A stretch of 64,000 nucleotides of DNA from an uncultured Candidatus Saccharibacteria bacterium (GCA_964460855.1 CAYWQH010000001.1:123868-187867); one strand, 5' to 3'; positions 8,276-45,097 are shown, counted from the stretch's first letter. Notes: generated by a model from the sequence alone, not told the origin. A program made the numbers and translations.

Positions 8276-8986
8276 TCATACGTAAAGCACCTCTTCCAGG
8301 TTCTTGCCGGCAGTTTCGACCAGGCTCATCACTTGGCGGTAACTTTGCCGGGTGGGGCCCAGCACTCCAATGTAACTTTGGTCGGAATACGGGCTGCGGA
8401 ACCGGCTGATTATTAAACTACAACCGGAGTTGCGTCCAATGGGGTTTTCGCTGCCGATATAAACGCTGAGCGGTTCGTTGGGGGCGGCTTCGCGCAGCCA
8501 CGGCTCTAAATTGTCCAGGAGCCTCGCAACTTCCTGGACCTGGCCGGGATGAATGAATTCCGGCTGGCCGAACAAGTTGGACAAGCCGCTCATATATAAC
8601 TGGTTGCCGATAGTCGCCATGCCCAAGTTGTGGGTCAGTTCGACTAAGGTATCAACCGCATTGCGGATGGTCCGTTCCGGCATACCGCCATCGGCGACCC
8701 GGGTTTGCAGGGCTTTTTCGGCCCTAGGCACGTTAAGCACTTTTTGGGCTTTGCCGGACGACATATTATTAACGTAAAACCGGTAGCCTTTATCGGTAGG
8801 GATACGGCCGGCACTGGTGTGCGGCTGGCTGATAAAGCCGCCGCGTTCCAACTCGGCCATTTCGGCGCGGACGGTGGCGCTGCTGACATCAAAAACTTTA
8901 GCCAGCAAACTGCTGCCTACCGGGCTGGCGACTTCGGCGTATTGCTCGACGATCGCCTCTAGAATTTTGGCCTGTCGGTCTGTCAT
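8276..8986 (-). CDS. hrcA: Heat-inducible transcription repressor HrcA (short form, 236 aa)
   Basis: N-terminal wHTH (RQAKILEAIVEQYAEVASPVGSSLLA...SSATVRAEMAELE..GFI.QPHTSAGRIPT.KGYRFYV). CIRCE operators lie upstream. Confidence 0.9.
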   Translation of the reverse strand: MTDRQAKILEAIVEQYAEVASPVGSSLLAKVFDVSSATVRAEMAELERGGFISQPHTSAGRIPTDKGYRFYVNNMSSGKAQKVLNVPRAEKALQTRVADGGMPERTIRNAVDTLVELTHNLGMATIGNQLYMSGLSNLFGQPEFIHPGQVQEVARLLDNLEPWLREAAPNEPLSVYIGSENPIGRNSGCSLIISRFRSPYSDQSYIGVLGPTRQSYRQVMSLVETAGKNLEEVLYV

Positions 8987-8997
8987 TAACTACCTAT

Positions 8998-9024
8998 TTA
9001 GCACTCGCTAGTGCTTAATGCTAG
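8998..9024 (-). promoter_or_regulatory. CIRCE operator 1 (cTAGCAtTa-N9-GAGTGCTAA on the minus strand)
   Basis: The right half matches the CIRCE consensus GAGTGCTAA perfectly and the left half matches 6/9. It sits at the predicted +1 / 5' UTR of hrcA. Confidence 0.7.
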
Positions 9025-9052
9025 TTTACCGAAATTGGCACTCTCATGTCAA
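9023..9052 (-). promoter_or_regulatory. hrcA operon promoter (TTGACA-N18-TAAACT)
   Basis: A perfect -35 TTGACA (9047-9052) lies inside the spacer of CIRCE 2. The -10 TAAACT (9023-9028) abuts CIRCE 1. Confidence 0.55.
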
Positions 9053-9061
9053 CAGTGCCAG
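9035..9061 (-). promoter_or_regulatory. CIRCE operator 2, variant (CTGGCACTG-N9-GAGTGCCAA on the minus strand)
   Basis: Inverted repeat with the canonical 9-nt spacer. Relative to TTAGCACTC-N9-GAGTGCTAA the halves match 6/9 and 8/9. Confidence 0.6.
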
Positions 9062-9064
9062 TCG

Positions 9065-9253
9065 CCACATACTCACCCAAGACATTCGAAAACATTATTG
9101 AATTTGCTGTATGTTTATTAGCCGCGCAGCGACAATCCCACTTTAGTGGGACTCCCACCCTTTAATTAAGATTGTGCGGGAGCGAGTCGCTGCTTTATTC
9201 GGCGGCCAATTAGCAAATTCATCAGTTTTCCCGAGTCTTGTGCGAGTATGTGG
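9065..9253. repeat. Long imperfect hairpin element E1 (189 nt; about 44-nt arms plus branched GC-rich core)
   Basis: The arms 9065-9108 and 9212-9253 pair (ccacatactc/gagtatgtgg, caagac/gtcttg, gaaaac/gttttc, gaatttgct/agcaaattc). Inner helices are gccgc/gcggc, gcagcgac/gtcgctgc and cccac/gtggg. The arms resemble those of 18764-18938. Confidence 0.6.
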
Positions 9254-9397
9254 TTCCATCTATATAACTAAAAGTTCACTATTTTCACACTCCGCTTTAC
9301 CGCATAGATTTTAAGCTAACCGGCAGTAAAGTTCATAAACGCAAGCCGAAAATTGTAGCGACCATCGAGCAAATTTTATTACTGATAATAATGGGTG

Positions 9398-9433
9398 CGG
9401 GCTGGGAGGGAGCTCGCGCTCACCTCCCGCCCG
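9398..9433 (-). terminator. GC-rich hairpin terminator of the 179-aa cassette gene
   Basis: cgggc(t)gggagg pairs with cctcccgcccg, with an inner gagc/gctc helix. It lies 7 nt after the TGA stop and is followed by an A/T-rich tract. Confidence 0.55.
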
Positions 9434-9439
9434 TTGTCG

Positions 9440-9979
9440 TCAGTTTCGCTCGCTGGTGGACTGGCGCGAAGCCACCAGCCGGTCCATGGCCTCCTCGTGG
9501 TTCTTGGCCATGCCCGTCTCAGTTGCAAGACGGATGTGGTTGATGCGAGCAGCGTCTTGCTGCTGCAGCAGGAACTCCGTTTCGTCGGCGCGCGTGGGAA
9601 ATTCCTTGGAATTCTCCATCAGCCAAGCCTCAAGCTCTTCGTCCAGAGTGTCCCGCCCAGCATCGAGTATGGCCACACTGTGGTACACGCCATGACCGGC
9701 GATGACCAGCACCCTGATGCCGCGCAGGGCGGCGTACAGGATGCGGGCCCGCCGCATTGGCAGACCCGGAATGTCCGGATCAACCGCCCACTCGGCATAG
9801 CGCAAGAAGTTGTCGAGGCGGTCAGTTGGACGGACGCCCAGAGCCTCGATCCCGTTGAAGAACCTCGTGAGGGAATCGATATAGCGCCGGCAGTCCCTGA
9901 TGAAGTTCTTCGGCTCTACTCTGTAGAGCTGCAGGACTTCCAGGTCCCGGTGATCCTCGAACTGTGCCTTATTGGTCAA
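9440..9979 (-). CDS. Hypothetical protein (179 aa), compositionally foreign GC3-rich cassette gene
   Basis: TTG start 6 nt after AAGGAG. All Lys codons are AAG and GAG/CTG/TTC/CGC dominate, whereas dnaK is AAA/GAA-rich. No motif recognised. Confidence 0.65.
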   Translation of the reverse strand: MTNKAQFEDHRDLEVLQLYRVEPKNFIRDCRRYIDSLTRFFNGIEALGVRPTDRLDNFLRYAEWAVDPDIPGLPMRRARILYAALRGIRVLVIAGHGVYHSVAILDAGRDTLDEELEAWLMENSKEFPTRADETEFLLQQQDAARINHIRLATETGMAKNHEEAMDRLVASRQSTSERN

Positions 9980-10019
9980 CGAACGCTCCTTGTTCAGAAG
10001 GGTTGAAAACGACTAATAT

Positions 10020-10047
10020 ATTATACTATATTTAGCATTATTTACAA
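10020..10047 (-). promoter_or_regulatory. Promoter of the 179-aa cassette gene (TTGTAA-N16-TATAAT)
   Basis: Read on the minus strand directly after the gmk stop. An AT-rich block abuts the GC-rich ORF. Confidence 0.5.
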
Positions 10048-10057
10048 GAGTTAGCAT

Positions 10058-14227: not shown

Positions 14228-15835
14228 TTACTGTATTTTGACCGGTCGATAAACTATTCTTCGGATACGGTCGACCACCGGAATGGCTTCTTCCAGACCG
14301 AACAGCGATGAAATTCCCAGGTGCACCAGGAAGGTCGGCGCGACGATAAAGAATAGTTTAGGCGCTAAGGTTGAAAAGCCGCGGTCACCGGTATTTAACG
14401 GTACGATCGAGACCATAATATAGGCGGTTAACAGCGTGAAGCCGGTAACCGACATAATCTTCACCACGCCGTTCCAAAATTCTTTGTTAAAGAAGTGCCG
14501 GTCCCTATAAATTATTATGCCAACCAGGATTACTACTTCCGAAACCGCCACTATAGATTGGGCGATGGCCAGGCCGGCTATGCCATAACCATTCGGGCTG
14601 GGGCGCGACAAGTTAAATGCCAAAAAGATGTTGAGGGCAATGGCGAACAGCGAAACATACAGCGGAATCCGGGTGTTTTTATAAGCGTAAAAATAGCGCG
14701 ATATCAGGGTGTAGAGCGTCCGGAATATAATCGCGCCGGCCAAAAAGCCCAGCACAATGGCAATTTCGGCCGAGCCTTTTTTATAGATCAAACGGGCAAA
14801 GTAGCCGCGGGCAAAAAAGCTGACTACGGCAATCGGCATAATTATCCAAATCATGGCCCGCAGGATTTGCAGGAAGTCGCGGCGGAATAGGTCGGGCCGC
14901 TTTTGGGCCAGCCGGTCAATCAGCCGCGGGAAAGCGGCCGTCGAAATCGAGCTGCCCACCAGTAGGATGGGCGCGGTGTGCAAGATGTAGCCGTTTTCGT
15001 AATAGGTAATGTTACCGGTACCCAGAGCGCTGGCCCGGTTGGTTTCGACGATACTGTTAATCGAGTCAATGCCCTGGTCGATAGCCCGCGGCGGCAGCTG
15101 GCGCAAAATGCCGTGGAAGTCTTTGCTTTTCCACTTAATATGCGGGAAATACTTAAAGCCCAGGCCAAACAAGCCCAGGCAAACCACCAGCAGCTGCAGC
15201 AAAGCGCCTACCATGGCGCCAATGCCCAGCCCGATCAACCCGATATTATCCCGGAACACGTAAGCGCTGGCGATGATGCTCAAGTTGTAGATCAACGGGC
15301 TGATAGCAAAGAAAAAGAAGCGCCCGAAAGTTTGCTGGACGCTAGTCAGAATTCCGGAGATGGTGAAAAGCAGCGGGTTGAGGGCGATGAGCCGCATTAT
15401 TGTAGCGGCGTTATGGAGCTGTTGGGGGCTTAAATCCTTATTAATAATTAACTTAATAAGCGGCTCGGCAAAGATAATCAGGAAGATGCCGACGATTGCC
15501 ATGGCAATGCCCAGCAGGTTTAACAAGCTGGAGGTTAATTCCCAAACGGTTTTTTTATCGCCTTTCTCCAGCCGGTCGGCTAAGAACGGCATAAAAGCCA
15601 CGCCCAGGGCGCCGGCGGCAATCGTATAAAAGAAAAAGTCAGGGATTTTAAAGGCCGCAAAGTAGGCGTCGGTGCTGTTGGGCCCGATAGTATGGAAATT
15701 GGCGTTAATTATCGAGGTCCGCAAAAAACCCAGCAGCTGGCCAAATAAAGCCGCGCCAATCAGAAGTGCAGCGGCGTTGCTCAGCGGCATACGCCGGTTG
15801 GCGCGGCTAAGCCACTTATTCTTTACGCGGTCCAT
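14228..15835 (-). CDS. murJ: Lipid II flippase MurJ (MviN family)
   Basis: 535-aa polytopic MOP-family protein with MurJ-like N-terminal motifs (...DAYFAAFKIPDFFF...). Confidence 0.85.
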   Translation of the reverse strand: MDRVKNKWLSRANRRMPLSNAAALLIGAALFGQLLGFLRTSIINANFHTIGPNSTDAYFAAFKIPDFFFYTIAAGALGVAFMPFLADRLEKGDKKTVWELTSSLLNLLGIAMAIVGIFLIIFAEPLIKLIINKDLSPQQLHNAATIMRLIALNPLLFTISGILTSVQQTFGRFFFFAISPLIYNLSIIASAYVFRDNIGLIGLGIGAMVGALLQLLVVCLGLFGLGFKYFPHIKWKSKDFHGILRQLPPRAIDQGIDSINSIVETNRASALGTGNITYYENGYILHTAPILLVGSSISTAAFPRLIDRLAQKRPDLFRRDFLQILRAMIWIIMPIAVVSFFARGYFARLIYKKGSAEIAIVLGFLAGAIIFRTLYTLISRYFYAYKNTRIPLYVSLFAIALNIFLAFNLSRPSPNGYGIAGLAIAQSIVAVSEVVILVGIIIYRDRHFFNKEFWNGVVKIMSVTGFTLLTAYIMVSIVPLNTGDRGFSTLAPKLFFIVAPTFLVHLGISSLFGLEEAIPVVDRIRRIVYRPVKIQ

Positions 15836-15906: not shown

Positions 15907-16662
15907 CTAGGCGGCTTGCTGTTCGACCGGTTTTATCGAGATGACGTGGTCGACGCCAGGTTCGGTCCCATTTTTGTGGCGTTCTTCTGCCTTTTTAGCG
16001 AAGTTCATCCGGGAATTATTTTCTAACTGCTCAATATTTTTATAAACGTAAACGGCCCCTCCAAGTACCAGCGCGCCAACCGCCGCGCCAACGGTTCCGC
16101 GGGCTAATGAGTTGTCTACAACTTCAGAGCCAGTTTCTGTGCTAAAGCCAAGCGCTTCGCCAAAAAATACGCCAATACCTAAAGCTGCGATTTGCAGCCG
16201 TCCCATTAATCTCTTATATTTTTCACGTCCGATTGCTTCGTTAATTCCTTGGCGCAACCGCATATTCATATTGCCTTCGATAATATCGCTAAGTTCCATT
16301 AAGCTTTTATCAGGATTACTAGTGTGAAGCGGCGCCAGCACTTCAACAACATTGCCGGAAACTAGCGCAGGGCCGTTGTCGCGGGCGACAACATCCGGGC
16401 TTTCAATTAATGCCGGCAGGCTGGGAACCGGATTTACAAAAACTTCTTTGATCCTGTCGCTAGGCCTAATTGCTTCGTTGGCATTATAAACAGCAACTGC
16501 GAACTTTTCGTTATCAATCACAATTTTATGTTCTTCGTCGTTTATAAATAAGTCTGAATGCGGAAAATCTAAACTGGCCGTGGGCGCTAAAATTGGGGTT
16601 GTTGAGCGCTTTACAACCTTGTCCTTAATCTCTTGAAACTCGGTAAATCCTTCTGCTGACAT
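15907..16662 (-). CDS. Hypothetical protein with C-terminal TM helices
   Basis: The start was moved to the ATG at 16662 (SD GAAGAGGG). This is supported by the upstream promoter TTGAAT-N17-TATACT at 16690-16718. Confidence 0.5.
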   Translation of the reverse strand: MSAEGFTEFQEIKDKVVKRSTTPILAPTASLDFPHSDLFINDEEHKIVIDNEKFAVAVYNANEAIRPSDRIKEVFVNPVPSLPALIESPDVVARDNGPALVSGNVVEVLAPLHTSNPDKSLMELSDIIEGNMNMRLRQGINEAIGREKYKRLMGRLQIAALGIGVFFGEALGFSTETGSEVVDNSLARGTVGAAVGALVLGGAVYVYKNIEQLENNSRMNFAKKAEERHKNGTEPGVDHVISIKPVEQQAA

Positions 16663-16689
16663 AGTACCCTCTTCAATATTAATGGAATT

Positions 16690-16718
16690 AGTATAGTCCT
16701 CTGAAGTGCCCGATTCAA
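16690..16718 (-). promoter_or_regulatory. Promoter TTGAAT-N17-TATACT for 15907..16662
   Basis: Hexamers read on the minus strand with 17-nt spacing. Confidence 0.45.
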
Positions 16719-16735
16719 TCAATTGTGATTCTGAA

Positions 16736-16764
16736 TTGCCGCTTATGCACCGAGCTGTTATCAT
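16736..16764 (+). promoter_or_regulatory. Extended -10 promoter (TTGCCG-N17-TGtTATCAT) of the 85-aa cassette gene
   Basis: Hexamers, 17-nt spacing and the TG motif were read directly. Confidence 0.45.
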
Positions 16765-16817
16765 AAAAACTTCGCATTTTTTGCGTAGCGTTTGGCAAGA
16801 CAAACAACTGAAAGGGG

Positions 16818-17075
16818 GTGGCCGCCCTGGCTACCTACATTATTTCAGTCGGTGAAGAAGTGACCCTGGAATTCCACATCCACGACAACGACACGGCGAT
16901 CGACCATGTCACAGAGTTGGCGTCACTGTGGGAAAAACGCACTGAAACCTGGGGCAAGCTGTTCGCCGGCCGGAAGAAGTACCCGTTGATGCTGCTTCGC
17001 CGGGAAAGAGACCGGTCCTTCGAGCATGTGATCACATGCACGGTAAACCTCTCTGGCCCCGGCGACTACAACTAG
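16818..17075 (+). CDS. Hypothetical small protein (85 aa), GC3-rich cassette gene
   Basis: GTG start directly after the purine tract GAAAGGGG. Codon usage is GC3-biased. The ORF is bracketed by the 15-bp inverted repeat 16787-16801 / 17118-17132. Confidence 0.5.
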   Translation: MAALATYIISVGEEVTLEFHIHDNDTAIDHVTELASLWEKRTETWGKLFAGRKKYPLMLLRRERDRSFEHVITCTVNLSGPGDYN

Positions 17076-17081
17076 CGGCTT

Positions 17082-17137
17082 TGCGGGGCCGGGTCTTCGA
17101 ACCCGGCCCCGCAGCGCGTCTTGCCAAACGCTTTTTT
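17082..17137 (+). terminator. Tandem terminators: a 13-bp GC hairpin, then a short hairpin plus T6
   Basis: tgcggggccgggt-cttcga-acccggccccgca (17082-17113), followed by gcgt...acgc and TTTTTT (17132-17137). Confidence 0.65.
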
Positions 17138-17152
17138 CATTGGTCCATAAGA

Positions 17153-17181
17153 TTGCTACTTTATACTACTTATGTTATAAT
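17153..17181 (+). promoter_or_regulatory. Extended -10 promoter TTGCTA-N17-TGtTATAAT of the 76-aa cassette gene
   Basis: Near-consensus hexamers. 28/32 nt are identical to the promoter at 17508-17539. Confidence 0.6.
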
Positions 17182-17213
17182 ATTTTATTAGGCTACCCCA
17201 AAGGAGACGTCTG

Positions 17214-17444
17214 ATGGTAATGCAAACCTATCAGATCGACGACGGCCCGCTGTTCCAGCGGCCCAGCGAGTTTCTCGCCAAGGAGGTCTTCCGCCTCGCG
17301 GTGGAACACCGGCGCGACGAACTCAGCCAACTGCCGGACCCGCCGCGGACAACCCTGCTCACCCTCTACAGCTTCCACGAGCGTGGGCGCACGCAGATCG
17401 ACGACTACAAGATCGTCCTGCCAGGTGAGCCGGTAAAGGCGTAG
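17214..17444 (+). CDS. Hypothetical small protein (76 aa), GC3-rich cassette gene
   Basis: AAGGAG lies 7 nt before the ATG. About 64 of 76 codons end in G/C by hand inspection, and all Lys codons are AAG. Confidence 0.65.
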   Translation: MVMQTYQIDDGPLFQRPSEFLAKEVFRLAVEHRRDELSQLPDPPRTTLLTLYSFHERGRTQIDDYKIVLPGEPVKA

Positions 17445-17451
17445 CAATCCG

Positions 17452-17490
17452 GGGCCCCCTCCGCCACTTGGCGGACGGGGCCCTTCCCAT
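17452..17490 (+). terminator. 14-bp GC hairpin terminator
   Basis: gggccccctccgcc-actt-ggcggacggggccc, followed by ttcccattttt. Confidence 0.6.
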
Positions 17491-17508
17491 TTTTATGTGT
17501 CTATAGTA

Positions 17509-17537
17509 TTGCTATTTAATACTTCTTATGTTATAAT
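17509..17537 (+). promoter_or_regulatory. Extended -10 promoter TTGCTA-N17-TGtTATAAT of the 128-aa cassette gene
   Basis: Same module as 17153-17181. Confidence 0.6.
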
Positions 17538-17654
17538 AACTCTGATTTCACTTCGGTGGGGTCGTATTTTGACAGGGTTAAGCTTCTGCCGCGTCCAATG
17601 AGCGCATCTTAATAGATAAGGTGCACTGGTTGGACACGACAGAAAGGATCTACT

Positions 17655-18041
17655 ATGTCCAACGCTCAAGGCCAGCCCGTGACCTATTACGTGCAGGTCT
17701 ACGAGTTCTGCGAGCACCTGCACATGTCAGTAGTGCTGAAGGAAGCTCGGGGATTCGATTCCCTGCCCTTCCGCGACTACTTGAAGTGCGTCGTACCGGG
17801 TACTACGCTCAGCCATCATTTCACGGACCATGGCTTCCTCTCGATCGACATCGAGTGGCGCCAGGGGCTGAAGCTATCTGTTCGCGCGATCGAGTCAGTA
17901 CAAGGCGCGATCGACGACTTCTTCCGTGACAACGGCGGCGTGCGAGACCATCGCGCCGAGCGCATCGAAGCGCTGGAAGCGGCGATGCGGCCTCAGGAGC
18001 TGTGGCTCGTCGAGTGGCCGGAGTACGATCCGACCGTCTGA
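17655..18041 (+). CDS. Hypothetical protein (128 aa), GC3-rich cassette gene
   Basis: SD GAAAGGA lies 7 nt before the ATG. GC3-rich codons, with all Lys as AAG. A leader of about 110 nt precedes it. Confidence 0.65.
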   Translation: MSNAQGQPVTYYVQVYEFCEHLHMSVVLKEARGFDSLPFRDYLKCVVPGTTLSHHFTDHGFLSIDIEWRQGLKLSVRAIESVQGAIDDFFRDNGGVRDHRAERIEALEAAMRPQELWLVEWPEYDPTV

Positions 18042-18047
18042 CGTATA

Positions 18048-18079
18048 CGGCCGCCGGCCCCTTTGGGGGCTGGCGGCCG
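18048..18079 (+). terminator. 14-bp GC hairpin terminator
   Basis: cggccgccggcccc-tttg-ggggctggcggccg, 7 nt after the TGA stop. Confidence 0.55.
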
Positions 18080-18135
18080 CGCCTCACTTAACCCTGCCAA
18101 TCACATTTGTTATAAATCTTTTTAAAAGGACAAGC

Positions 18136-18165
18136 TTGCTTAATCCTAACTGCCCTTTATATTAA
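18136..18165 (+). promoter_or_regulatory. Promoter TTGCTT-N16/18-TATATT/TATTAA of the 167-aa gene; a second TGtTATAAA box lies at 18108-18116
   Basis: Hexamers read directly. Confidence 0.4.
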
Positions 18166-18184: not shown

Positions 18185-18688
18185 ATGGAACGAGGACAGC
18201 ATCCTGAATATACTTTCAGAAGACACGAACATTTTGAATTCAATGATAAAAAAGTAGATAAGAAAAAAAGAAATTCTATTCAAAAGGCCGCAACAAAGTC
18301 TCACGATGATTTAATGGCCTACCGTAGCCAACTAAAAGAAATTACAAAAGAGCTGGAGAAGCAACTTGAGCATCTCCAAGGCAAAACGATTTCAGTGAAT
18401 AGCACAAGAGCAGTTTTACGTTATGGCGGCAACTATCGGCTGCTTACGATCTCAACTGATACAGTTGGTTCCACCAATGGAGTTTTGCTTGATTTAGCTT
18501 TATTTAATACTGCAGAATTACACCATCCAGACGATGAGGGTAGCTTTGAAAACGTATTCGAAATAGTCATGCGAATTCATACCAATCCGGACATAACAAG
18601 ACATAATCCGAACAATCTAAGCGTAGTTTATGTCCCGATCGACGACATCCAAGGCCCAATTACGTTAGTTAAAGACGGTAGTAGCTAG
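18185..18688 (+). CDS. Hypothetical protein (167 aa), AT-rich cassette gene
   Basis: AAGGAG lies 5 nt before the ATG. Arg is encoded mostly by AGA and Lys by AAA. One 60-nt line (18301) counts 23/60 G+C. No motif recognised. Confidence 0.6.
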   Translation: MERGQHPEYTFRRHEHFEFNDKKVDKKKRNSIQKAATKSHDDLMAYRSQLKEITKELEKQLEHLQGKTISVNSTRAVLRYGGNYRLLTISTDTVGSTNGVLLDLALFNTAELHHPDDEGSFENVFEIVMRIHTNPDITRHNPNNLSVVYVPIDDIQGPITLVKDGSS

Positions 18689-18763
18689 TCTAGAAAAGTG
18701 AGTACTATTTATAACGAAACCACTGCGAAGCGAGCCCAAGTTGGCGTTTATCCAGTAAAGCGA

Positions 18764-18938
18764 AATACATAAGCACGCAAGACTCTGAAAAACTGAAGGA
18801 GTAAGGCTTGTAAGAAAGTAGTGAAGCGAGGACTGTTTGAGCCACTGCTTATATAAACTTCTGCGAGTTCCACAGCTTCCGATTTTCGCACAAGTTTTAC
18901 GACTATCATGTTTTTCAGCTCTTGCGGGATTAGGTATT
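18764..18938. repeat. Long imperfect hairpin element E2 (175 nt), related to 9065-9253
   Basis: The arms 18764-18811 and 18890-18938 pair (aatac/gtatt, cgcaaga/tcttgcg, ctgaaaaac/gtttttcag, cttgt/acaag). The 5' arm matches the E1 5' arm at 19/27 positions (acata..cac.c.aagac...gaaaac). Confidence 0.55.
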
Positions 18939-18943
18939 GAGCG

Positions 18944-20053
18944 CTATTCCCATCGGAAAACGCGAAACGCAACCGCATAAATAACCACCATCCATATCGC
19001 GATCAACCCGATCTGCGGCCCCAGCTCAGTCAAATGCTTACCCTCAGTGGCTATCATTCTAATTCCATCAATAATCGGCGTCAGCGGCAGCCAGGCCGAC
19101 ACGTGCTGCAGCCATTCCGGCATGCTGTAGCGCGGAAAGAAAGTACCCGACAAAAACAGCATCGGAAAAACTATGATGTTGGCCAGCGGCGCCGCCTGGT
19201 TTTCGTTTTTGGCCCAACCGCCTATCGCCAAACCAATGCCAAAAATACATAGAATGCCGTAAATAATAAATAACATTAGCTCCAGGTAGTTGCCGACAAT
19301 CTTAAAGTCGAATAATACCGTGGCCACGGCCAGCATTATGCCGATGGCAAAGACACCGATTACTGAATTGGATATAACACTAGATAAGAAAAACTGCCAG
19401 ACTTTAAGCGGCGTAATATGCAAACGCCGCAAAATACCCTGCTTTTTCATTTCCGGGAAGTAATTGACCGGGCCGAAAATGCCCAGTCCGATTATAGAAA
19501 AACCGATTATCCCGGCCACGGTGTAATCCAGCCGGCTCAAACCTTTAGTGTTGGTAGACTCGGCCTTAACCGTAAACGGGGTTTCGACTTTTACTAATTT
19601 AGCATTTACGGCATCCAGCGATTGCTGGATAACAGACTGGATAGTCTGGGCTGCCTGGTAGTTATTTTCGTTATACAAAACCTGGACTTCGCCTTGCGGG
19701 TATTGGCCATTCTGGTTATTGCCGAATTCTGCCGGCAGTACGATTGTCGAGTCTATTTCGCTGCGGCTCATTTTTTGCTTGGCTTCGTCAATAGTTTTAA
19801 CGCTGTCGTCCAGTTTAAATAACGGATTTTTTTTGAGGCCGTCTTCGAATTGCTGGGCCGCCTGGGTGTTGCTTTGGTTAATTAAAGCCACGTGGAAAGA
19901 CACGCTGTTGCTCTTACTGAAACTGCCAAAAATAACCAGGAAAATCAGCGGGAAGGCTACCGTAAAGAATAATGCTACGCGGTCGCGGAAGTAGCGGCGC
20001 ACACTGACGCGGGCAAATGTCCGGATTGTAAACAAAGAGCCTTTGCGCTGCAT
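18944..20053 (-). CDS. ABC-2 type transporter permease
   Basis: 369 aa with an N-terminal TM helix, a large loop and five C-terminal TM helices. It lies directly downstream of the ABC ATPase. Confidence 0.8.
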   Translation of the reverse strand: MQRKGSLFTIRTFARVSVRRYFRDRVALFFTVAFPLIFLVIFGSFSKSNSVSFHVALINQSNTQAAQQFEDGLKKNPLFKLDDSVKTIDEAKQKMSRSEIDSTIVLPAEFGNNQNGQYPQGEVQVLYNENNYQAAQTIQSVIQQSLDAVNAKLVKVETPFTVKAESTNTKGLSRLDYTVAGIIGFSIIGLGIFGPVNYFPEMKKQGILRRLHITPLKVWQFFLSSVISNSVIGVFAIGIMLAVATVLFDFKIVGNYLELMLFIIYGILCIFGIGLAIGGWAKNENQAAPLANIIVFPMLFLSGTFFPRYSMPEWLQHVSAWLPLTPIIDGIRMIATEGKHLTELGPQIGLIAIWMVVIYAVAFRVFRWE

Positions 20054-41756: not shown

Positions 41757-43514
41757 ATGCACAGCCTGTTCGTTGAGTTAAGCGTGGTTATTGGCATCGC
41801 CACCGGCGTGGCTTTTACCATGCGCCTGATTCGGCAGCCGCTGATTATCGGCTATATTATTACCGGCATTTTGGTGGGGCCGGTAGTGCTTAAGCTGGTG
41901 CAGCAGCCCCAAACATTCGAAGCATTCAGTAACATCGGTATCGCCCTGCTGCTGTTTATCATCGGCCTGGGCTTGAACCCGCAGGTAGTACGCGAGGTCG
42001 GCAAGGTGGTAGCCATTACTGCTTCGGTACAAATGTTTTTAACGATAGTTTTCGCCTATGTTACCGCCCGCTTTTTCCATTACAGTAAAACCGAATCGAT
42101 TATTTACGGCGCCGGCGTAGCATTCACCAGCACGATTATCATCTTAAAGTTGTTGAGTGATAAAAAAGAGCTGCAAAGGCTATACGGCAAAATTACGGTT
42201 GGCATAACTTTGCTGCAAGACGTGTTCGCGACGGTGGCCCTACTGCTGGTAGCCTCCAAAGCCAGCGACCAAAGCATTACCTTGGGGCCGTTTTTATACC
42301 TGGCCGCCAAAGGCCTGCTGGTGGTGATACCGATGTACTTTATTACCGCCTGGATTTTACCCCGGGCCCAAAAGTTTATCGCCGGCAGCCAGGAGTTTTT
42401 GTTTTTATTCGCCATAGGCTGGGGCTTTGGGGCGGCTGCGATTTTTGAATCGATTGGCTTTTCGCTGGAAGTCGGCGCCCTGTTTGCCGGTATTTGTTTG
42501 GCGCCGCTGGCTTACGCCCAGGAAATCAGCGCCCGGCTGCGGCCGCTGCGCGACTTTTTCTTGATAGTGTTTTTTATTACGCTGGGCAGCGGATTGCAGT
42601 TTAGTTCGATTGGCGGCATCATGCCGCTAATTATATTTGGCGTGATTATCAGCATATTTATCAAGCCGCTTATTTCGATGATTACACTGGGCCTGCTGGG
42701 CTACACCAAACGGACCAGTTTTAAAGTTTCGATGTCGCTGTCGCAAGTCAGCGAATTCTCGCTGGTGCTGGTAGTGTTGGCTGTGCGCCGCAATATTATC
42801 GGCCCGGAAATGCTTACGGCTATGACCGTAATCGCTTTGGTATCGATCGCCATTTCGGCCTACTTTATTACTTATGCCGACAATATATACTCGGTGCTGG
42901 AAAAGCGCCTTAGCTTGTTCGAGCGGCGTAAAACCCGCTATGAGCAGGAAAGTACCGCCAATTACGAAATGGTGCTATTTGGCTACCAAAAAGGCGGCCA
43001 CGAATTTTTACGGCTGTTCCAGCAGCTTAAAAAAAGTTTTGTGGTTATCGATTACGACCCGGATATGATTGATATTTTAGAAAAGCAAAAAGTGCGGTAT
43101 TTGTACGGCGACGCTACCGACATCGAGCTGCTGCAAGAAGCCCGCCTGGAAAAAGCCAAATTAATCGTGTCCGTTATGACCGACTACGAAACTACTAATT
43201 TTGTAGTTAATTATATAAGCAACATTAATAAGCGGGCCGTAATAATCTGCCATGCCGATAATGCCGAAAACGCTAGCAAGCTGTATAAGCAAGGCGCCAG
43301 CTACGTTATGATGCCGCACTACATCGGCAGCGAAAAAATCAGCGCATTCATAAAACGCAGCGGGCTTAGGAAAAGTGAGTTTAAAAAGTTCCGCGAAAAA
43401 CATTTGCAGTATCTGGAAGACAATTATGCTCTCAATGATGAGGACGACCCGCACAACCAAAAGCTCGGGCACGCTGTGCTGCATCATGTAGTCGGCGAAA
43501 CCAATTCTAAATAA
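41757..43514 (+). CDS. Kef-type monovalent cation:proton antiporter (CPA2) with a C-terminal RCK/TrkA-N domain
   Basis: Na+/H+ exchanger membrane domain followed by a Rossmann-like segment MVLFGYQKGGHEFLRLF.... Confidence 0.85.
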   Translation: MHSLFVELSVVIGIATGVAFTMRLIRQPLIIGYIITGILVGPVVLKLVQQPQTFEAFSNIGIALLLFIIGLGLNPQVVREVGKVVAITASVQMFLTIVFAYVTARFFHYSKTESIIYGAGVAFTSTIIILKLLSDKKELQRLYGKITVGITLLQDVFATVALLLVASKASDQSITLGPFLYLAAKGLLVVIPMYFITAWILPRAQKFIAGSQEFLFLFAIGWGFGAAAIFESIGFSLEVGALFAGICLAPLAYAQEISARLRPLRDFFLIVFFITLGSGLQFSSIGGIMPLIIFGVIISIFIKPLISMITLGLLGYTKRTSFKVSMSLSQVSEFSLVLVVLAVRRNIIGPEMLTAMTVIALVSIAISAYFITYADNIYSVLEKRLSLFERRKTRYEQESTANYEMVLFGYQKGGHEFLRLFQQLKKSFVVIDYDPDMIDILEKQKVRYLYGDATDIELLQEARLEKAKLIVSVMTDYETTNFVVNYISNINKRAVIICHADNAENASKLYKQGASYVMMPHYIGSEKISAFIKRSGLRKSEFKKFREKHLQYLEDNYALNDEDDPHNQKLGHAVLHHVVGETNSK

Positions 43515-43658
43515 TGCTAACAAAACCCGGTCCTCAAACCGCTCACGCGCGGATAGTGCCTGCCCTGAGCTGCACGACGAGTCTAGCATCTCCGGCAGGC
43601 ACTAAACCGGCTCCGCTAGGGTAAAGGGTAAGTTTTCGGCCCAGGTTTCGTTAGCATT
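43513..43658. repeat. Structured inverted-repeat element filling the convergent intergenic gap (146 nt)
   Basis: The 15-bp outer helix aatgctaacaaaacc/ggtttcgttagcatt abuts both stop codons. The inner perfect 10-bp helix is agtgcctgcc/ggcaggcact (43555-64/43594-603). Confidence 0.5.
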
Positions 43659-44956
43659 TAGCCTTTGGTTTGCCTATTTACATTTGCAGCACGCTTATTA
43701 ATAAATGAATCGCGGGACTGCTTATACTTAATCTCAGTTCCGAGGCGGTGCACATATTGGGCCAAGTTTTCCGGTTGCTTCGTTAAAACTTTTTTAGTGG
43801 AAGGTACCATAACATTTTTGCCGGTTTGGCGGTTAACTGTATGTTTGCAATCGACGCAGTGTAATATTCCTTTGTCGTATAAATTTTCTGGAAGGTCGAC
43901 TATGTTATTGCAGTTGGGGCAAGTGACGCATTTAAGCATGTCTTGTTTGGTGAAGTAACCTAATTTATCTGAGATTCTTTGGCCGCCCAGTACTGTATCG
44001 CAGCCAAAGAATTCGGTGCCGGCTTCCATAACGCCGGCGGCCGCGATCGATTCGGCCAGACTTTCCAAGTCCTGCCAGGTGCCGTCGAGTTTCCGCTTGT
44101 AACTCGAAACTATATCGCGGCGCAGCTGTTCACTGAGCCCCGGCCAATTTTCAGGCGGCTGGTACAGTGCTATAGAGTCTAAACCGCTCATCAGCGATTC
44201 CAATAATTCCGGGTGGCTGAGAACGAACCGGTAGCTGTCAGGCCCCTGCTTTGGTGCCAGGCGGTCGGCCAACTGGTAATCGGCAATGCCAAGGACTACC
44301 GGACTGTTTAAAATGTCGATGGTCGAGGCGTCTTGCGCCAGTGCGATATTAAATTCCGATTGGTAAGTCTGTGCTACGTCAGCGGCGCTGAGGCCGTCGA
44401 TGCTGCGCGAAAAAAGCCGCAGTCCGCCTTGGCCGTCGAATACGCTGACCCGCAAAAAACCGCGCCGCAGTTTTGGGTTCCGGCCTAAAAGTTTTAAATC
44501 GTCGTCGCTGAACAAATCAGAACCGCACAGAGAAAACGTTACTAAAGTTGCTTCTATGCCTTGCTCTAAAATACGTCTTTGGAGCAATGATTCCTCATAT
44601 TCTGCTTCGGCTACTCTTATATATGCACTTAAATTAGGGTTTTGGGCGGCGCGTTCGCGGGCATATGCTACACCGTTGCTATGTAATTCCAGCCAATCTA
44701 CCGGCAAGCCTTGTTCGTCGTGGCAAACCATTTGGTCGCCGGCCAGCCAAAAATCCAAATCGGTCCGCACCTGGCCGTCCATCATTTCACTGAGGTACAG
44801 GCTTTCCTGGCGAAAAACATATTCCCGGGCCCGGCTGTCGCTCAAACCTTCGTGCAATTCACGCAAAGTCCGCGCCGAATCGGCCTGGCGTTTTAAATTA
44901 AGGTTTTCAGTTACCGTTTCCAAAAAAATACCCCTGCTTTTAAGCAAGGGCAACAA
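43658..44956 (-). CDS. Hypothetical protein with a C-terminal zinc ribbon (CxxC...CxxC)
   Basis: CVTCPNCNNIVDLPENLYDKGILHCVDCKH. The start is uncertain: TTG in the track, with an alternative TTG at METVTEN preceded by GGGG. Confidence 0.55.
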   Translation of the reverse strand: MLPLLKSRGIFLETVTENLNLKRQADSARTLRELHEGLSDSRAREYVFRQESLYLSEMMDGQVRTDLDFWLAGDQMVCHDEQGLPVDWLELHSNGVAYARERAAQNPNLSAYIRVAEAEYEESLLQRRILEQGIEATLVTFSLCGSDLFSDDDLKLLGRNPKLRRGFLRVSVFDGQGGLRLFSRSIDGLSAADVAQTYQSEFNIALAQDASTIDILNSPVVLGIADYQLADRLAPKQGPDSYRFVLSHPELLESLMSGLDSIALYQPPENWPGLSEQLRRDIVSSYKRKLDGTWQDLESLAESIAAAGVMEAGTEFFGCDTVLGGQRISDKLGYFTKQDMLKCVTCPNCNNIVDLPENLYDKGILHCVDCKHTVNRQTGKNVMVPSTKKVLTKQPENLAQYVHRLGTEIKYKQSRDSFINKRAANVNRQTKG

Positions 44957-45097
44957 TAACTGGCGGCTCTTGCTCGAGAGACTTTACAACTGTTTCGGAC
45001 TTTAACCGTTGCGGCACAGCGTTAGAATTTCACTAACTTCCAGTTTGGTTTATTAAAGTGCTTTCATGATAGCACAAGCCATGACAAAATATTGGTT

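Follow-up and report, generated by a model that had tools for sequence, protein, structure and literature searches.

A long hairpin at an accessory islet of a Saccharibacteria genome and the conserved apical core that it shares with a palindrome family

The 64,000-nt stretch of Candidatus Saccharibacteria (TM7) DNA analyzed here (the window) contains three long inverted repeats, E1, E2, and a hairpin at 43513–43658. E2 lies between the last gene of an accessory islet and a resident permease gene. Is it a terminator for these two genes, a structured RNA, a recombination site, or a copy of an element that inserts at many sites? With reservations, we lean towards the last answer: E2 would belong to a widespread family of palindromic DNA elements, non-autonomous and prone to insertion, and be a copy of it in Saccharibacteria; in kind, the family resembles the REP/REPIN, ERIC, RPE, and MITE elements.

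E2 and the genes around it

The features of the locus are as follows.

14228..15835, − strand: murJ (PF03023, 6e-62)
15907..18165, no strand assigned: remainder of the accessory islet; no syntenic relative has it between permease and murJ
15907–16803, − strand: 298-aa ORF of the islet
16804–18165: GC-rich islet block (55.7% GC, 49.1% in the window) with three small + strand ORFs
17083–17112, 17451–17483, and 18049–18078: perfect GC-rich hairpins of the islet, one a few bases after each small ORF, without a U-tract
18185..18688, + strand: orphan 167-aa ORF, 40% GC; it closes the foreign block, has the same orientation as E2, and stops 76 nt before it
18764..18938, + strand: E2, a complete 175-nt imperfect hairpin; by folding, + is the better-folding ('sense') strand
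18764..18822, + strand: 5' arm of E2, of lineage-specific sequence, holding the word CAAGACTCTGAAAAAC common to E1
18823..18879, + strand: conserved core of E2, from the covariance model match at 18821–18882, the family alignment, and covariation
18823–18827 and 18875–18879, + strand: P1 of the core, GAAGC pairing with GCTTC
18828–18834, + strand: 5' strand of P2, GAGGACT
18835–18840, + strand: internal loop, GTTTGA
18841–18864, + strand: P3 apex, degenerate and AT-rich
18865–18874, + strand: 3' strand of the core, GAGTTCCACA, with a bulged T and A and an A·A mismatch
18880..18938, + strand: 3' arm of E2, ending 5 nt before the permease stop codon
18944..20053, − strand: ABC-2 permease (PF12698, 1e-49), a resident gene whose stop abuts E2 and to which the E2 sense strand is antisense

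The sequence-only reading had given E2 arms of about 48 nt (AATAC...CTTGT pairing with ACAAG...GTATT). These are correct, and the pairing runs on inward to the apex, extending over about 60 bp, with terminal inverted repeats that form the ends of the element as in a MITE. The RNA fold of E2 with its flanks has a free energy of −72.1 kcal/mol (z = −5.0), which is not equaled in 200 dinucleotide shuffles. Folded alone as RNA, the sense (+) strand reaches −61.8 kcal/mol and the antisense (−) strand −49.3 kcal/mol, while with DNA parameters E2 folds at −34.2 kcal/mol (z = −6.0). The coordinates bear out the placement of E2 between the end of the 167-aa ORF at 18688 and the ABC-2 permease stop codon at 18944–18946. 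A 76-aa ORF at 18748–18978, which runs over E2, had been dismissed as probably spurious; we agree, because the region is conserved as structure and not as protein, and the ORF has no family match. The core repeat can create spurious ORFs such as this one, and it can also break assemblies. An independent short-read assembly of the same organism (L001, Logan SRR9179562 contig) stops 39 nt into E2, which fits with the palindrome disrupting assembly.

E2 sits exactly between two convergent stop codons, 76 nt from one and 5 nt from the other, as would a long bidirectional terminator, or a stabilizer of mRNA 3' ends, that serves the 167-aa ORF and the permease gene and has no mobility. The unrelated long hairpin at 43513–43658 also spans two convergent genes from stop to stop. 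However, no U-tract or T-run follows the E2 stem on either strand, and the one thing that a terminator scan reports is an internal stem of 6 bp on the − strand, which falls short of the value expected from shuffles. Furthermore, most relatives have no hairpin of any kind at the permease–murJ site, and the core described below occurs across phyla in places that do not suit a terminator: antisense between co-directional genes, inside a gene, and in inverted pairs. An immobile terminator is thus a highly improbable account of E2, and in its plain form it is essentially excluded. The earlier reading had asked whether E2 is more than a one-off terminator, and it is, being part of a repeated, insertion-prone family whose hairpin is present elsewhere. 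In the preferred reading, the strong hairpin between two convergent transcription units would be a by-product.

The hairpin at 43513–43658 (146 nt) runs stop to stop between the convergent genes 41757–43514 (+) and 43658–44956 (−), and it folds at −72.9 kcal/mol on the − strand and −61.4 kcal/mol on the other. It was rejected as a family member, as it has no core and no sequence relation to E1 or E2. An AdoCbl-II (cobalamin) riboswitch (RF01689, 49.4 bits) is located at 44981–45059 (−), upstream of the 432-aa gene at 43658–44956 (−).

The position of E2 next to foreign genes, also proposed from the sequence, is supported. Permease orthologues are present in the 80 best Saccharibacteria/Saccharimonadales loci, with identities of at most 73%. 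Nothing homologous to the islet ORFs is present in the 80 related loci, and these ORFs have no match in Pfam, PADLOC, PHROGs, or NCBIfam. The 167-aa ORF also has no match in these four collections, and among 5.8 billion proteins where homologues were looked for as a sign of a 'gene + hairpin' unit, it matches only itself and is an orphan. The 2.9 kb between E2 and murJ is missing in every relative, and because murJ directly follows the permease in relatives, it marks the other edge of the hot spot. The islet arrangement is reproduced by independent assemblies from three runs of one study. There is no partner core copy at the far edge of the islet in the window.

Two other parts of the earlier description did not hold. 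The islet genes had been called cassettes, and no integron-type features (attC consensus, integrase) were found; the words ccactgc and gaagcgag, noted as repeated in the flank and within E2, occur at chance level (blastn-short E of 24 and 6). An origin related to HIP1 and cyanobacteria was rejected, since GCGATCGC does not occur in the window. The blocks of GC-rich ORFs and hairpins at 16804–18165 and, beside E1, at 9254–10057 suggest, by their style, acquisition from a high-GC donor. The hosts of Saccharibacteria are Actinobacteria.

The conserved core and its folded strand

E2 is identified by its apex, not by its arms. Through an exact match of 19 nt, a second hairpin was reached in the distant relative L075, with other arms and the same apical sequence. 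In the syntenic relatives L015 and L007, a hairpin with the same apical organization is located directly past the permease stop, in the same relative orientation; the L007 hairpin folds at −90 kcal/mol. The family layout is constant: lineage-specific arms, P1, GAGGACUGUYYGAG, a variable hairpin P3, CGAGUUCCRCAG, and P1' (a 55-nt core). The arms lengthen the core stem by 10–60 bp, and 26 nt of the core are sequence-invariant.

An exact core pattern of 22 specified bases was scanned in metagenome contigs and in viral contigs. The metagenome contigs gave at least 120 stretches, with GC contents of 0.32–0.74 (32–74%); the taxonomic breadth of the family is read from contig GC content alone, in a sample selected by the pattern. 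The viral contigs gave one match, L082, which is host DNA beside a Mu-like prophage. A covariance model, CM R1, was then built from the core and P1. In the 64-kb window with filters off, E2 is its sole match (49.8 bits, E = 1.3e-13, full model), with no score for E1 or for the hairpin at 43513–43658. In the listed metagenome loci, CM R1 matches 125 + 28 copies, with E-values down to 1e-18, which makes a family of more than 150 copies. In 1.34 Mb of Saccharibacteria loci, it matches L015 and L075 only. With the core found once per 64 kb in the window and 2–3 times per 1.34 Mb of Saccharibacteria relatives, the element does not look like a high-copy MITE in the loci of this lineage that were scanned. 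In other lineages, some contigs have 2–4 copies, the densest reaching 4 within 12 kb. All family members are hairpins. Among the metagenome copies listed, the median full hairpin is 104 nt long; therefore, E2 is a long-armed member. CM R1 offers annotation pipelines a handle on a repeat that they currently miss.

The core has no true match in 72,556 plasmids (PLSDB), 50,697 phages (INPHARED), or 5,426 E. coli genomes. Its sequence strings in the searchable literature hit unrelated primers only. No description of the family was found in the searchable literature on palindromic elements and MITEs of CPR bacteria or on GNA-triloop and single-stranded DNA motifs, where it may go under another name. 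Interspersed palindromic repeats are of a known kind, with REP, ERIC, and RPE each limited to a narrow group and conserved in the arms; the combination of an invariant apical core, cross-phylum reach, and association with cargo genes appears to be new.

In the CM R1 alignment, 91.8% of the cells are paired, compared with 27–48% in slid registers, and there are 231 double-change cells, compared with 77 in shuffles. P1 and P3 covary strongly and freely, while P2 and the internal loop are almost invariant, and the changes that do occur in P2 are compensatory swaps. The invariance of the core is partly built in by the search pattern, so the 22 copies outside the pattern are the independent test, though a partly independent one, as CM R1 was trained on pattern matches. 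In these 22 copies, CUGUYYGA and GAGUU are unchanged, and wherever P2 differs its pairing is kept: there are two changes of G-C to C-G, four of C-G to U-A, and one swap of several pairs in L094. Thus, because the copies missed by the pattern keep both motifs and change P2 only by compensation, the core is a sequence-specific structured site. A K-turn reading of the tandem GA was rejected, since its register is contradicted by compensatory G-C to C-G swaps in L082b and L143b.

The two strands of the element are not equivalent. The strand with GAGGACUGU is the more stable in 117 of the 124 listed copies (mean difference −8 kcal/mol), and G·T wobbles in the arms of the listed copies number 222 for the sense strand and 80 for the antisense strand. 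Relative to resident neighbor genes, the folded strand is antisense in 32 cases and sense in 8 overall, with counts of 23 and 5, respectively, in contigs below 50% GC (p ~0.0009), where the naive ORF calls of these loci are reliable. This antisense bias does not fit any simple replication-strand model that was derived. Of 111 apical loops, 48 are triloops, 26 of them C-GNA-G, and there is a single GNRA and a single UNCG loop. C-GNA-G triloops are a hallmark of stable DNA hairpins, while GNRA and UNCG loops dominate functional RNAs. Because C-GNA-G triloops are frequent and GNRA and UNCG loops nearly absent, the loop spectrum points to a single-stranded DNA form, which it favors without proof.

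E2 could also be a structured noncoding RNA, either a small RNA gene or a cis-acting module, made from the + strand, in which the T-loop-like GUYYGA internal loop, adjoining a helix with two bulges, binds a conserved cellular partner or is catalytic and the spread of the element is secondary. The strong covariation around an invariant asymmetric core is consistent with an RNA, as are the strand preference and the excess of G-U pairs. We take the internal loop GUYYGA to fit the RNA T-loop consensus, so that a role at the RNA level is conceivable; several copies have GUUCGA, which is identical to the tRNA T-loop. Furthermore, the same locus keeps the core in divergent Saccharibacteria while the arms have changed by compensation, and in the window and L075 the sense strand runs in the direction of the gene upstream, of which it would be transcribed as the 3' UTR. 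However, the sense strand is mostly antisense to its neighbors, the apical loops are of the DNA rather than the RNA type, and a promoter-like site upstream of E2 is absent. The Rfam 15 models gave only noise matches on E2 and L082 at a permissive E ≤10, and at the gathering score they gave nothing at the elements in the window and 14 loci. The in-frame insertion within a gene, the several copies per contig, the cargo-carrying inverted pairs, and the patchy distribution outside a clade, all described below, also argue against it. We regard the RNA as an unlikely explanation and retain the DNA element as the preferred one.

E1 had been paired with E2 as the first of two copies of one 'E-type' element. 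The features at E1 are as follows.

9065..9253, − strand: E1, a 189-nt hairpin whose basal arms are modestly like those of E2, with an unrelated apex and no core
9440–9979, − strand: GC-rich orphan ORF; a perfect GC-rich hairpin without a U-tract follows its TGA within a few bases, and E1 is downstream of both and co-oriented
9254–10057: block of 54.2% GC, compared with 49.1% for the window

The likeness of the arms is present and modest. CAAGAC-N4-GAAAAC with at most one mismatch has three matches in the window, compared with 0.25 expected, and these are in E1 (both arms) and E2 only. The arms of E1 and E2 align in both orientations. Local alignment gives 55/85 identities for the 5' arms, which is reached by 4 of 200 shuffles, and 35/55 for the 3' arms, which is reached by 31 of 200. 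Since the core defines the family and E1 lacks it, the statement that these are two copies of one element is only weakly true; the arm likeness is the part of it that stands.

What E1 and E2 do have in common is their setting. As the sequence-only reading had proposed, both are beside foreign genes; both lie at the downstream end of foreign blocks, in variable hot spots. At E1, the spacer between the gene for a 234-aa protein and hrcA is 1072 nt in the window and 130–210 nt in five relatives. No long hairpins were found in the hrcA-side spacers of relatives. There is no homology between the ORFs adjoining E1 and those adjoining E2. Between the hrcA start at 8986 and E1, there are CIRCE-like inverted repeats at 8998–9018 (TTAGCACTCGCTAGTGCTTAA) and 9035–9061 (TTGGCACTC-N9-CAGTGCCAG), which are presumably HrcA operators.

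Occupied sites, empty sites, and cargo genes

The permease–murJ synteny holds in L002–L021, and the presence of the element at this spacer is polymorphic. Empty sites in relatives had been proposed as a test, and they exist: the spacer is 59–113 nt, with no hairpin, in six relatives (L009, L006, L005, L017, L012, and L014), compared with about 275 nt in L007 and L015, which have the element there. It is 1091 nt in L010 and 3108 nt in the window. Among the relatives, L007 and L015 are the only ones with an intact element at this spacer. At another site, the gene that flanks the L075 copy has at least 15 orthologues without the element. In a tree of four flanking proteins, the carriers do not form a clade: L015 clusters with L010 and L013, L007 is found among element-free genomes, and the window is a separate branch. 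Furthermore, the L007 copy is of the L075/L097 sub-type, which is present at unrelated sites, and L146 carries an L015-like copy at a non-syntenic site. Because the carriers are not a clade and their sub-types are found at unrelated sites, the permease–murJ spacer has been occupied independently. The arms are fully diverged between the window, L015, and L007 with the core kept, which could equally reflect a host-beneficial function under purifying selection.

One copy lies within a gene. In L190, a 99-nt copy (L190:5264–5358) is an in-frame insertion of 33 codons in a Metallophos_2 (YfcE-like) phosphoesterase gene; it is located between conserved motifs, and the reading frame is open through it. 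Target-site duplications at the element ends, which had been suggested as a further test for a MITE, were not seen: direct repeats do not occur consistently at the ends of the 35 copies compared (E2, L015, and L075 included), at hairpin boundaries approximate enough that very short duplications, such as TA, could escape. A cognate enzyme was looked for by clustering the neighbor genes, and any one family is present in 6 of about 120 listed loci at most, with no transposase, recombinase, integrase, or Y1-transposase-like cluster among them. Similarly, there is no recombinase, integrase, or transposase among the best 25 of 45 Pfam families in the 64-kb window.

In high-GC lineages, two inverted copies make composite palindromes of about 570 bp with tips TGTTTGACGG...CCGTCAAACA, in which the core hairpin is a sub-terminal module (L172:473–1040, L091:~881–1431, L125, L135, and L144). 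These composites also hold 11-mers of GAGNNNCGCAG in several repeats, a mini-hairpin of the C-GNA-G type, and a hairpin of CTTTCTTTTGGCGAAGCAAAAGAAAG at the terminus. The tips of the L172 composite show no target duplication. Inverted pairs with TGT...ACA tips can also enclose genes. Those of L173 enclose GNAT and ydhR-like genes, and at L082:8985–10330 a DUF2971 gene, which matches PDC-S31 (6e-48), a candidate defense family of PADLOC, lies between two inverted copies. The L082 pair is directly beside the end of the Mu-like prophage (MuA, Ner-like, and S24 repressor) and host murB. No transposase lies between the inverted copies of L173 and L082, as one would in an autonomous element; the enclosed genes are of other kinds. 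At L010:11140–12190, about 900 nt of GC-rich DNA interrupt an element of the L015 type, which is thereby truncated at the 5' edge of its core. This DNA has three small ORFs co-oriented with the element. Thus, in the window, L010, L082, and L173, the foreign ORFs are located 5' of the copy and co-oriented with it, and the same geometry is found at E1.

This geometry, with the accessory genes immediately 5' of the copy, would also be expected of a site-specific recombination site analogous to attC, at which a recombinase acts on the folded strand to insert and excise cassettes and which is not itself transposable. The joining of foreign DNA inside the L010 element at the 5' edge of its core, the repeated use of the same spacer, and the loop signature suggestive of single-stranded DNA are consistent with such a site, and conserved structured motifs have been proposed as unusual attC sites before (PMC5737381). 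However, the paired copies are inverted, not direct as attL and attR would be. Many copies stand alone, without an accessory gene beside them, and one is inside a gene; short cassettes in arrays and a nearby integrase are both absent. Furthermore, the RYYYAAC/GTTRRRY boxes are absent from the hairpin base, the conserved part is the apex, and the folded strand is sense to the cargo, which is the opposite of attC. An attC analogue is, in our judgment, quite improbable.

The insertion-prone element, with E2 as a low-copy member of a cross-phylum family, remains our preferred and the simplest reading, in which the family marks or creates sites where accessory genes gather. We suggest the following mechanism. 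One strand, the + strand for E2, would fold alone and be the active form; this would most probably happen to single-stranded DNA exposed in replication, repair, or transfer. The invariant P2, the two bulges, and the GUYYGA/R internal loop may form the recognition site for a trans-acting protein encoded elsewhere in the genome, which would move or recombine the element. If the element has a causal role in gene acquisition, new genes would gather on the 5' side of a copy, co-oriented with it, which would make E2 the downstream boundary of the 2.9-kb orphan block between permease and murJ.

A bolder form of this proposal can be put forward tentatively. The core may be the cis-site of a new cross-phylum system that moves or captures genes by way of a folded single strand, parallel to attC/IntI or HUH/Y1, with a structured apical site and an enzyme never encoded beside it. 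Otherwise, it may be a new self-contained nucleic-acid motif with a T-loop internal loop, acquired horizontally by Saccharibacteria, possibly together with cargo from a high-GC host. To our knowledge, the drivers of gene gain in reduced Saccharibacteria genomes are poorly understood. If a dedicated enzyme recognizes the core, this would be a new route of gene mobilization that reaches these genomes.

Comparison with known systems

Among the Rfam families, 6S, SRP, hammerhead, and T-box stem I resemble E2 as long, irregular hairpins of 100–190 nt with a conserved internal loop. 6S and SRP RNA were rejected, as they gave no covariance model match and have the wrong architecture. The CUGUYYGAG...CGAGUU of the core superficially recalls the CUGAUGA...GAAA of the hammerhead, which was also rejected: the core is an internal loop between two helices, not a three-way junction, and it has no covariance model match.

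Like integron attC sites, the core family has one strand that folds, probably as DNA, a variable terminal structure, a location just downstream of accessory genes, and a preference for stable small loops. However, attC is conserved only at its base, in the R''/R' boxes RYYYAAC/GTTRRRY, and is otherwise recognized by structure, whereas the core family has a variable base and a sequence-invariant apex. The base of E2 reads ACATAAG...ATTAGGT and does not match the boxes, and that of a low-GC sub-family, GTTGGG...CCCAAC, has them in the inverse order. The L007 base, CCCTAAC...GTTAGGG, is alone in being close to attC boxes. Furthermore, the folded strand of attC is antisense to the cassette ORF, whereas in the core family the strand that folds is the cargo-sense one, as seen in the window, L010, L082, and L173.

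MITEs such as Correia/NEMIS are also non-autonomous, with inverted-repeat arms and empty sites in relatives, and the TGT...ACA tips of the composite forms are like the ends of DDE transposons. Unlike a classical MITE, the core family shows no target-site duplication, and no related autonomous IS was found. Between lineages, it is the center that is conserved and the arm sequence that varies, the opposite of the classical MITE pattern.

RPE and ERIC/IRU are closer in several respects. They are palindromic repeats of about 100–150 nt, present or absent at orthologous sites, with compensatory evolution of the stem and a mobilization mechanism that is unknown, and RPE inserts in frame into protein genes, as the L190 copy does. 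They have no sequence relation to the core family. E. coli genomes carry ERIC copies, whereas the core has no match in the 5,426 E. coli genomes. Both RPE and ERIC are restricted to a single genus or family; the core, as judged from GC content, is cross-phylum, and its inverted pairs, unlike RPE and ERIC/IRU, can carry cargo genes.

REP sequences are short palindromes near gene ends that have a conserved arm with a 5' GTAG and are moved by RAYT proteins, which are IS200/IS605-like Y1 transposases whose genes have REPs on their flanks. No RAYT-like gene adjoins any core-family copy in the listed loci. The REP/REPIN–RAYT system and the core family are alike in being noncoding, intergenic hairpin palindromes near gene ends, with variable copy number, a strand or orientation bias, a presumed single-stranded DNA substrate, and an enzyme that acts, or in the core family would act, in trans from elsewhere. 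In contrast to the conserved GTAG arm of REP, the core family has lineage-specific arms without GTAG and a conserved apical core with bulges and an internal loop, and it is found on contigs of 32–74% GC, far wider than is known of any REP family.
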